IMG/VR virus record: IMGVR_UViG_2606217174_000009
Source: a virus
Taxonomy: Duplodnaviria; Heunggongvirae; Uroviricota; Caudoviricetes
Direction: 5' to 3' (one strand)
DNA: 35,320 nucleotides
Shown: positions 27,341 through 28,763 of the stretch, in pieces
Layout: every line of letters begins with the position of its first letter
How positions within the stretch are numbered: position 1 is the stretch's first letter
Program-made: the position numbers and the translations under genes
The notes under the pieces: model-generated
Database searches by the model: none
Seen by the model: only the letters and a program-made list of their open reading frames with translations
What the model was told of the DNA's origin: nothing

Positions 27341-27598
27341 GTGCTGACGACGCAAAAACGAAAATTTGCGCTGGCGCTCATGTCCGGGAAAAACAAAACA
27401 GCGTCAGCCATTGCGGCAGGTTATTCGGCGAAGACGGCCAGAGTTAAAGGCTCGCAGCTGGCAAAAGATCCGGAGGTGCTTGCGTTTTATAGCGCGGCGA
27501 TTTTTTTGATACCGATTTGCATTTCATTTGATACCGCTGAAAAACGCCGATACGCAACTTATTTGATACTAAATCGGCGCTTTTCTTTTGAGTTTTAG
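27341..27598 (+). pseudogene. Terminase small subunit, N-terminal HTH only; truncated
   Basis: GTG start with GGGAGGG SD; first ~50 aa (KRKFALALMSGKNKTASAIAAGYSAKTARVKGSQL) match the terminase small subunit HTH, then the frame degenerates within about 30 codons. Confidence 0.6.
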
Positions 27599-27615
27599 AA
27601 TGAGTTTTTAAGCGT

Positions 27616-28353
27616 TCATTCACTCTCTTTCAAACCAGTTTTAACTGTTTGTGGTTTTGGGTAAGGCTGGACTTTGAATAGCTTTGTGTTAAGGCGTTTT
27701 CTGGCTCTCTTGTCCAGAAACCGGATGTAACGAAACTGACGGAATTTATGAACACTGGCTCTGTCGATATTAGCCCGCAGATGTTCACCTCGCTGTCCTC
27801 CTCGTTTGATTGCATTCTTGCAAATCTCGTGATACCACTCGCCATCAAGTTCATAGAATGTTGTTTCATGACTGCCTACATAATCAAAATTGCTTGCCTG
27901 GTACACGACACCAAGACAGCCACAACGCTCATCTGCAAACGACTGAACCCACTGCACCTGCGGATAAAGTTGTCTGATTAGTTTGAGCGCGTAACTGATT
28001 GCCCTTGATTCGGAGTTTCTCGGCATACAGTCATGCAGCCATAACCGGTTAAGCTCCATATATTCGCGGTTCTGCGTGCCAGTTACGACGCGTGCACCAT
28101 TGTTTGGATTAAGGGCATAACCCCATTGCATTACGCCAACCAGCTCCCGTTCTGAAAATATGCCCAGATGAAGGTAGGAATTATTTACGAAACGATGGCT
28201 GTAATGTTTATTGACGACGACCAGCCGGGCCAGCCAGCAACTTATTGTCTCAACCCGTAACTCACGGGAGCCATAACCGACGATATTGTCGTTATAGTGA
28301 ATAAGTTCAGGCGTGCTGATGATACGGGATGTAACTTGCTTTCTGTTCCCCAC
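27616..28353 (-). CDS. mom: Mom-like DNA modification protein
   Basis: About 245 aa from a GTG overlapping the com 3' end (ORF track extends the frame to 28548); assigned mainly by synteny with com and size; start uncertain. Confidence 0.55.
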
Positions 28354-28507
28354 GACAGGATTTCCTTGTGTATGTGGGGTGCTCTGTGGCGCTCTGAGAT
28401 GTGATTTGATTGAGGGTTTTACAGCGCGGACATTTGACTTCCAGATAACTGAAGCTGGCTCGTGCCAGTAGCTTGTTACAATGTCGGCACCGTATGTTTC
28501 GATACAT
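28307..28507 (-). CDS. com: Com-like zinc-finger translational activator
   Basis: [30 protein letters not shown] matches the C-x2-C ... C-x2-C zinc finger of phage Mu Com; AGGAGG SD; overlaps the mom-like frame. Confidence 0.75.
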
Positions 28508-28763
28508 GGCCGCATAACCTCCTGCTTTGTTGTTGATATCTTTATCACTCAATCGATCGACAAAAACGATCGATTTGATTTATTTAATTGATACAACAAA
28601 TAACACGAAATGTCATTAGCGAAAATTTATGAGTTTGATCACTAATTTTAAACGGTGCTGTAACGCATAAGTGCTGAATGATTGTACATTTGAATACCGC
28701 AAAGCAAACAAATCAACTAATTTATAGAAGTCAATTGGTTAATTGCCAGCGTAAGAGGCTGCT

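Follow-up and report, generated by a model that had tools for sequence, protein, structure and literature searches.

A Mu-like com-mom operon with predicted Com and Dam/OxyR control at the right end of a transposable prophage inserted into a lambdoid terminase gene

Introduction

Which element interrupts the small terminase gene of the viral DNA analysed here, and does the cassette adjoining the break indeed represent a Mu-type DNA hypermodification operon together with its control elements? [quoted passage not shown] Its promoter is silenced by OxyR at three unmethylated GATC sites and needs the activator C (PMC3378877), whereas translation depends on Com, which binds CC(N)2-3GAG in a small hairpin located just 5' of the stem that buries the mom GUG (PMC6483171). 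The window, i.e. the whole stretch of 35,320 nucleotides from IMG/VR record IMGVR_UViG_2606217174_000009, had previously been read from its letters only. This original prediction proposed a horizontally acquired com/mom module, possibly regulated by Dam, in which Mom was recognised by synteny only.

Results

A Sp18-like prophage interrupts terS

The 5' fragment of terS, which comprises about 49 codons of the small terminase gene of a lambdoid prophage, is located on the plus strand at 27341-27487 and is cut off by an insertion. Up to ...GCGTTT the window runs collinear with the intact terS gene of BP-4795, a lambdoid phage, and then breaks at 27488: it continues with TATAGCGCGG (GCGTTT/TATAGCG, the slash marking the break), whereas BP-4795 reads ATAGCCCGT and the intact gene ...GCGTTTATAGCCCGT. 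An alignment of seven E. coli loci and a Mu-like phage inserted in the Stx1a phage LC727895 shows the same terminus, TATAGCGCGGCG... (TATAGCGCGGCGATTTTTTTGATACC...), next to eight unrelated flanks; the insertions share TATAGCGCGG, and the flanks include flgK, flgL, a diguanylate cyclase gene, a fimbrial gene and dcyD. We found the same DNA in 18 complete E. coli genomes at 92.6-99.9% identity, and among the matches listed essentially all begin at window position 27487-27488. The exact terS junction itself was not found in the RefSeq complete E. coli genomes or the GTDB representative genomes.

A near-identical, complete Mu-like prophage of 39 kb (L090) shares this right end and encodes a transposase, an AAA ATPase, Gam and a Mor-family activator, WP_000852372.1, in addition to lysis genes, the Mu gpT head protein and a contractile tail. 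The right 7.8 kb of the prophage is visible in the window, past which the remaining left 31 kb extends; 98.6-99.4% of the visible part aligns to L090, and beyond the far junction the intact terS would be expected to continue as ...ATAGCCCGTAAA. Sp18 (O157 Sakai; described in PMC2669165) and the Mu_JNE phages of CC119 STEC match the right end, com, mom and the regulatory block at 95-99.9% DNA identity, while the O157-type copies diverge from the window upstream of 28602. Phages of the Sp18 type are known to insert at random sites, including other prophages (PMC10132054; PMC2669165), and in STEC they are found in Stx and other prophages (PMC10132054). The terminase gene is thus most likely truncated because a Mu-like prophage transposed into terS, which breaks exactly at the prophage terminus at 27488. 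The truncated terminase of the original prediction is thereby accounted for, and its horizontally acquired module can be described more precisely as the right-end operon of a Sp18-like transposable prophage.

The right end (attR) of this prophage spans 27488-27585 and contains three direct repeats ending in TTTGATAC (27497-27512, 27512-27534 and 27547-27569; repeat families D1 and D2). By analogy with R1-R3 of Mu, these repeats are probably transposase-binding sites. Their core TTTGATAC differs from the CGAAA-type sites of Mu, and the terminus ends in ...TA instead of ...CA. A terminator-like hairpin lies on the minus strand at 27539-27585, 30 nt past the mom stop codon, and consists of a stem of 12-13 bp (arms 27539-27551 and 27573-27585), a 21-nt loop and a following UUUUU. 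It folds with -17.6 kcal/mol (z = -3.2 compared to shuffled sequences) and is kept in all relatives with one-sided G-C to G-U changes, and also in L001, a locus with a different payload. A hairpin with a T-run after mom had been noticed before and is indeed present, yet the interval given for it, 27548-27590, overlaps the actual one only partly. A consensus terminator scan does not call this hairpin because its loop exceeds 8 nt. The hairpin and the T-run would end the com-mom transcript inside the prophage end, and since the loop encloses the innermost end repeat, the element may have a dual role.

Identity of the com and mom genes

Both genes are encoded on the minus strand. By homology, com (28307-28507) encodes a zinc-ribbon translational activator of 66 aa, and mom (27616-28353; GTG start) encodes a tRNA(Gly)-dependent N6-adenine aminoacyltransferase of 245 aa; the two overlap by 47 nt (28307-28353). 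The proposed minus-strand cassette with overlapping genes is therefore present, with small coordinate offsets, and the RefSeq coordinates of mom in near-identical prophages are the same as here. Unlike in Mu, three small genes and a gene for a 684-aa DUF6645/SASA protein lie upstream of com, between com and the position that the gin-like invertase occupies in L090. A Shine-Dalgarno sequence, AGGAGG, is located at 28518-28523 on the minus strand, 10 nt before the ATG of com, and is conserved in relatives.

The Com-like zinc finger peptide (...KCPRCKT) shows the pattern C-x2-C...C-x2-C with cysteines at positions 7, 10, 26 and 29. It matched the Pfam family PF10122 (Zn_ribbon_Com) in a profile search with E = 7.5e-13 and 48.2 bits (cut-off 22.9), is 100% identical to WP_014334043.1 of the Com family in RefSeq, and shares 45% identity with Com of Mu. 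A sequence search of the solved structures with Com gave no match.

For the 245-aa protein, a search against Mom-family models had been proposed as a check. The protein matched PF25680 (Mom) with E = 7.8e-78 and 261.2 bits (cut-off 27.1), covering all of the profile positions 1-202 of 202, and aligned with Mu Mom (residues 13-241) without a single gap at 78% identity. The crystal structure of Mu Mom, PDB 8bv8, was matched with E = 2.4e-123, and WP_000528246.1, to which the protein is 100% identical, is named 'tRNA(Gly)-dependent adenine aminoacyltransferase Mom' in the newest annotations. The NCBIfam release used for scanning Mom returned no match, although RefSeq names the protein. Based on the profiles, the identity with Mu Mom, the structure match and the RefSeq identity, all of which go beyond synteny, we conclude by homology that the com-mom assignment is correct; the earlier caveat on the identity of Mom can thus be lifted.

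An open reading frame of 310 aa extends the mom frame through com (27616-28548), and we considered whether it represents a longer Mom isoform. The open stretch upstream of the mom GTG varies between 6 and 122 codons among relatives (27 in close relatives), which argues that the longer frame is due to chance. The isoform was therefore rejected and the start placed at the GTG at 28353.

Predicted chemistry of the encoded Mom

Nine residues are essential or important for the activity of Mu Mom, namely W48, H58, Y59, R111, S124, D149, R151, Y159 and W181, and R111, S124, D149 and R151 are required together with a HTH-like insertion (PMC13219725). All nine are kept in the protein of the window, in which the residue position corresponds to the Mu number minus 8, and the insertion (Mu residues about 175-209) is conserved within the gap-free alignment. 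From the 78% identity and the retention of all tested catalytic residues we infer the same chemistry as for Mu Mom. The enzyme would glycylate N6 of adenine in the phage DNA, leading to N6-carbamoylmethyl-dA and, as a consequence, to progeny that would be resistant to many restriction enzymes.

Homologues of Mom with 66-70% identity also occur in 34 IMG/VR loci that have neither com nor a GATC cluster. In the one locus examined of these (L087), which belongs to a lambdoid phage, mom is flanked by the antiterminator gene Q and the holin-lysozyme-spanin genes. In 5 of the 34 loci, mom is preceded at a distance of 120-190 nt by a complete tRNA-Gly(UCC) gene, and in two by a degraded one; the paper on the mechanism of Mom (PMC13219725) makes no mention of a tRNA-Gly gene near mom.

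A predicted start-codon hairpin and a putative Com recognition motif at the mom start

The minimum-free-energy structure predicted for the mom start region is a hairpin at 28348-28379 (minus strand). Its outer stem, CCCCAC...GUGGGG, includes the mom GUG (28353-28351), and the AAGGA Shine-Dalgarno sequence is held in an inner stem. A CCCAC/GUGGG hairpin was also predicted for Mu and nine other representative loci, with the outer, closing pair changing from C-G in the window lineage to U-A in Mu. Directly 5' of this hairpin, at 28382-28389 on the minus strand, lies CCACAGAG, which matches the Com recognition motif CC(N)2-3GAG; Mu has a CC-N-GAG motif at the corresponding place. Both the motif and the predicted start-codon stem occur in the window and are conserved. 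For the stem flanking CCACAGAG, only 2 bp are predicted, so that it is much weaker than the AUGC/GCAU stem of Mu. Scanning 27488-28700 against Rfam revealed no known RNA family.

These elements are consistent with a translational gate as in Mu, whose function we infer from sequence and predicted RNA structure. The mom GUG and its Shine-Dalgarno sequence would be locked in the hairpin until it is opened, and Com, translated first from the shared mRNA, would bind CC-N3-GAG and open the mom hairpin.

A GATC palindrome homologous to the Dam/OxyR sites of Mu

The palindrome AATCGATCG-N7-CGATCGATT upstream of com (28551-28575) contains two Dam sites, at 28555 and 28568, and its arms (AATCGATCG, 28551-28559; CGATCGATT, 28567-28575) form a perfect 9-bp inverted repeat. 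Two GATC sites within an inverted repeat had been noted here before and are indeed present, whereas two of the details need correction: the string ATCGATCGACAAAAACGATCGAT starts at 28552 rather than 28550, and the repeat measures 9 bp instead of 8 bp.

The clustering of GATC by itself is weak evidence for Dam control. GATC occurs less often in the window than expected (72 sites compared to 131), and several further pairs lie close together. The strong evidence is provided by homology: the pair aligns with GATC II and III of Mu with a spacer of 9 nt in both, and the GATT that follows the pair as well as a caattaaat motif upstream are common to the window and Mu, while the position of Mu GATC site I reads CAATTA in the window. 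When we compared 12 distinct com-mom lineages from IMG/VR, nine showed the GATC pair at 9-nt spacing, two at 18 nt, and one lacked it. Both tetranucleotides and the 9-nt spacing are fixed in divergent com-mom loci, whereas the spacer sequence varies freely, a pattern characteristic of selection acting on the Dam sites.

Within this region, the OxyR consensus is matched best at 28556-28592, with agreement in 13 of 20 positions, and the homologous site of Mu scores equally. A score of at least 13/20 is reached at only 7 positions of the 35-kb window (top 0.02%). The palindrome is therefore a probable Dam-sensitive OxyR operator, and putative Dam/OxyR control of com-mom, of which the Dam part had initially been put forward as a possibility, is well supported by sequence. 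The two GATC sites upstream of com would serve as the operator, and OxyR is the most likely protein to bind them in the unmethylated state.

We also considered the palindrome as a late-promoter box that is shared across the prophage. This was rejected since there is no second copy; the whole related prophage contains no other CGATCG-N-CGATCG or ATCG-N7-CGAT site.

The promoter region differs from that of Mu

The distance between the GATC pair and the com ATG is 47 nt in the window compared to 75 nt in Mu, i.e. the pair is located 27-28 nt closer to com. This shorter interval leaves no room for the C site of Mu at -28 to -57. Indeed, no Mu C box (GATTATGCCCCAATAACC-like) is recognisable upstream of com, and the C-binding region of Mu has no counterpart in the window. 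The spacing between the palindrome and com together with the missing C box constitutes the one real difference from Mu.

A sigma-70 consensus scan of 27300-29200 revealed no minus-strand promoter. The candidate promoter stretch at 28539-28616 (minus strand) offers two arrangements, either a -10 element TAAAGA at 28544-28539, or a -35 element ATGACA at 28616-28611 combined with a -10 element TATCAA at 28593-28588, the latter two being separated by 17 nt.

One reading of this region is that the same proteins are wired differently at the level of transcription, with the palindrome overlapping the core promoter (about -40 to -23), expression independent of C, and methylation and OxyR as the main switch. 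The position of the GATC pair nearer to com would fit, and three more distant loci with the same short geometry (L035-L037) carry a good -10 element, TATACT or TATAGT, 7-9 nt past the second GATC. In addition, CCGCAAAnCCnGCCCC, a box that is shared by Plys and PI of L090, is absent upstream of com. However, the window shows only the poor TAAAGA at the place of this -10 element, and its closest relatives (L008, L009) show nothing recognisable there. Moreover, the alternative ATGACA-TATCAA promoter upstream of the palindrome is conserved in the L009 type, and activator sites can be too degenerate to be recognised by eye. We therefore regard a C-independent core promoter as possible but tentative.

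Discussion

Comparison with related systems and alternative readings

Taken together, we read the region as the right-end com-mom operon of a Sp18-like, Mu-like prophage that inserted itself by transposition into the terS gene of a lambdoid resident, with Mom-dependent DNA hypermodification and gating by Com and Dam/OxyR, and we assign this reading a probability of roughly 0.92. Mu itself (NC_000929; Mup54/Mup55) shows the same gene order, with com overlapping mom and the operon at the extreme right end.

Homologues of com are found with other payloads. [quoted passage not shown] Closer to the window, Mu_JNE122137 retains com, the Com motif, the hairpin and the first three codons (GTGGGGAAC) as well as the terminator and end region, but encodes a C5-cytosine methylase of 350 aa (PF00145, E = 2e-42) in place of mom. 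This arrangement is comparable to the com-methyltransferase pairs in FluMu and Pnme1 (PMC3299994).

A different question is whether the cassette is still of use. The prophage copy in the window lacks a segment of about 1 kb that in L090 includes the gin-like invertase as well as one alternative tail-fibre end, and it resides inside another, now broken, prophage. It could thus be argued that the prophage is defective and that the cassette is a silent relic from which com-mom is never usefully expressed. We consider this unlikely, since the com and mom reading frames are intact and are shared in identical form by more than 15 further E. coli genomes, and the Shine-Dalgarno sequence, the hairpins, the GATC pair and the end repeats are all intact as well. 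Furthermore, the loss of the invertase does not prevent phage growth in gin mutants of Mu and is thus compatible with growth of Mu-type phages.

Finally, it is highly improbable that the palindrome, instead of serving as a methylation-sensitive operator, represents a plus-strand terminator or the site of an unrelated dimeric protein, with GATC being incidental. In favour of this reading, 28551-28575 is called in a terminator scan as a plus-strand candidate with a T-rich tail, and the arms are perfectly complementary. However, this strand is antisense to com and mom and carries nothing upstream of the palindrome that needs termination, and the arms outside GATC degrade in other lineages while both GATC sites and their spacing stay. 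Moreover, ATCG-N7-CGAT has the same geometry as the OxyR half-site ATAG-N7-CTAT, and the consensus score equals that of Mu.

Implications for the strain and the Sp18-like lineage

The finding as such is already known and ordinary, since identical proteins already have names in RefSeq and the underlying biology was elucidated in Mu. For the strain it means that a Mu-like prophage provides an intact anti-restriction hypermodification gene and has knocked out the packaging gene of a Stx-phage-like resident prophage, both of which are documented for Sp18-like phages.

A further-reaching interpretation, which we consider rather doubtful, is that the mom promoter was remodelled in the Sp18-like lineage, with the palindrome placed over the core promoter, the C site gone and methylation instead of a phage activator timing Mom, so that the right end would act as a portable, self-gated 'DNA-modification slot'. 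If the remodelled-promoter reading is true, the occurrence of a C5-methylase instead of mom downstream of the same com and hairpin module would point to such a slot. Two points are of modest value in their own right. With its two GATC sites and without a C box that can be recognised, the lineage provides a naturally occurring variant of the classic mom control region, and in its sister element the Com and hairpin control module drives a different modification enzyme.

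Mu-like prophage and lambdoid host

The right terminus of the Mu-like phage in the window reads 5'-TATAGCG (window 27488-27500), which is identical in the further insertions L001, L002 and L005-L009 and consistent over eight independent insertions. The transferred strand therefore ends in ...TA-3', whereas that of Mu ends in ...CA-3', and the target duplication, as annotated in GenBank LC727895, comprises 4 bp in contrast to the 5 bp of Mu.

Relative to L090, a near-identical and complete 39-kb prophage, about 1 kb is missing (window 32069-32266 against L090 4685-5727), and with it one alternative C-terminus for the tail fibre and the greater part of the gin-like invertase gene. 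The host-range switch of the window's prophage is probably frozen. On the com side of the invertase-gene position seen in L090 lies a gene (window 29861-31915, minus strand) whose 684-aa product combines DUF6645 with a sialate-O-acetylesterase-like SASA domain; this protein has no counterpart in Mu and is possibly a tail-associated deacetylase. Two regions on the minus strand of L090, located upstream of the lysozyme and the head protease/scaffold genes (28688-28790 and 20526-20720), share the box TGA-N3-yCCGCAAAwCCkGCCCC-N12-GGyTTAyGCTG, which probably represents the late-activator site and -10 element of this phage type; the box was not found upstream of com.

The host lambdoid prophage shows a Stx-phage layout (window 18590-20240), in which an N6/N4 DNA methylase gene (PF01555) is followed by tRNA-Met, two tRNA-Arg genes (the three tRNAs at 19689-19938) and the sRNA STnc100 (20043-20240). 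The interval from the tRNAs to the nanS-like gene (20414) contains no stx-sized ORFs. Rfam matches in the same prophage further include DicF RNA (4713-4764, minus strand) and the sok antitoxin of hok/sok (13433-13607, plus strand).

mom genes without com

Among the 34 com-less mom loci (L056-L089), a GC-rich leader, gctcgttgagggtggcc...ggcctgacgcacccattcctacggtcacgggtacaccaagagttattggagtac, is conserved about 110 nt upstream of mom (for example L056 1385-1497). This leader, which is without an Rfam match, may be a late-operon leader, a terminator, or a translational control element standing in for Com.

The lambdoid phages without com carry Mom homologues of 66-70% identity. Five of the 34 loci carry a complete tRNA-Gly(UCC) gene on the mom strand, 120-190 nt upstream of mom (L072 633-706, L074 1310-1384, L080 1306-1379, L083 1218-1291 and L087 1306-1379), and remnants of tRNA-Gly are present in L065 and L076 (1221-1286). 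In L087, the locus examined, the tRNA gene is situated between antiterminator Q and mom-holin-lysozyme. All tRNAs detected beside mom are tRNA-Gly, the co-substrate of Mom; the Mom mechanism paper (PMC13219725) makes no mention of a tRNA-Gly gene beside mom. The linked tRNA-Gly(UCC) could supply this co-substrate, or could simply be a rare-codon tRNA.

Replacement of mom in a sister phage

In the sister Mu-like phage Mu_JNE122137, located within a Stx1a phage (LC727895; L001 4166-5417), mom is replaced by a gene for a 350-aa C5-cytosine DNA methylase (PF00145, E=2e-42). This phage still has com itself, the motif for Com, the hairpin over the start codon and the opening codons GTGGGGAAC, as well as the terminator hairpin and end repeats. 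The boundaries of the swap thus closely follow the ORF, which suggests a slot gated by Com whose payload can be exchanged.
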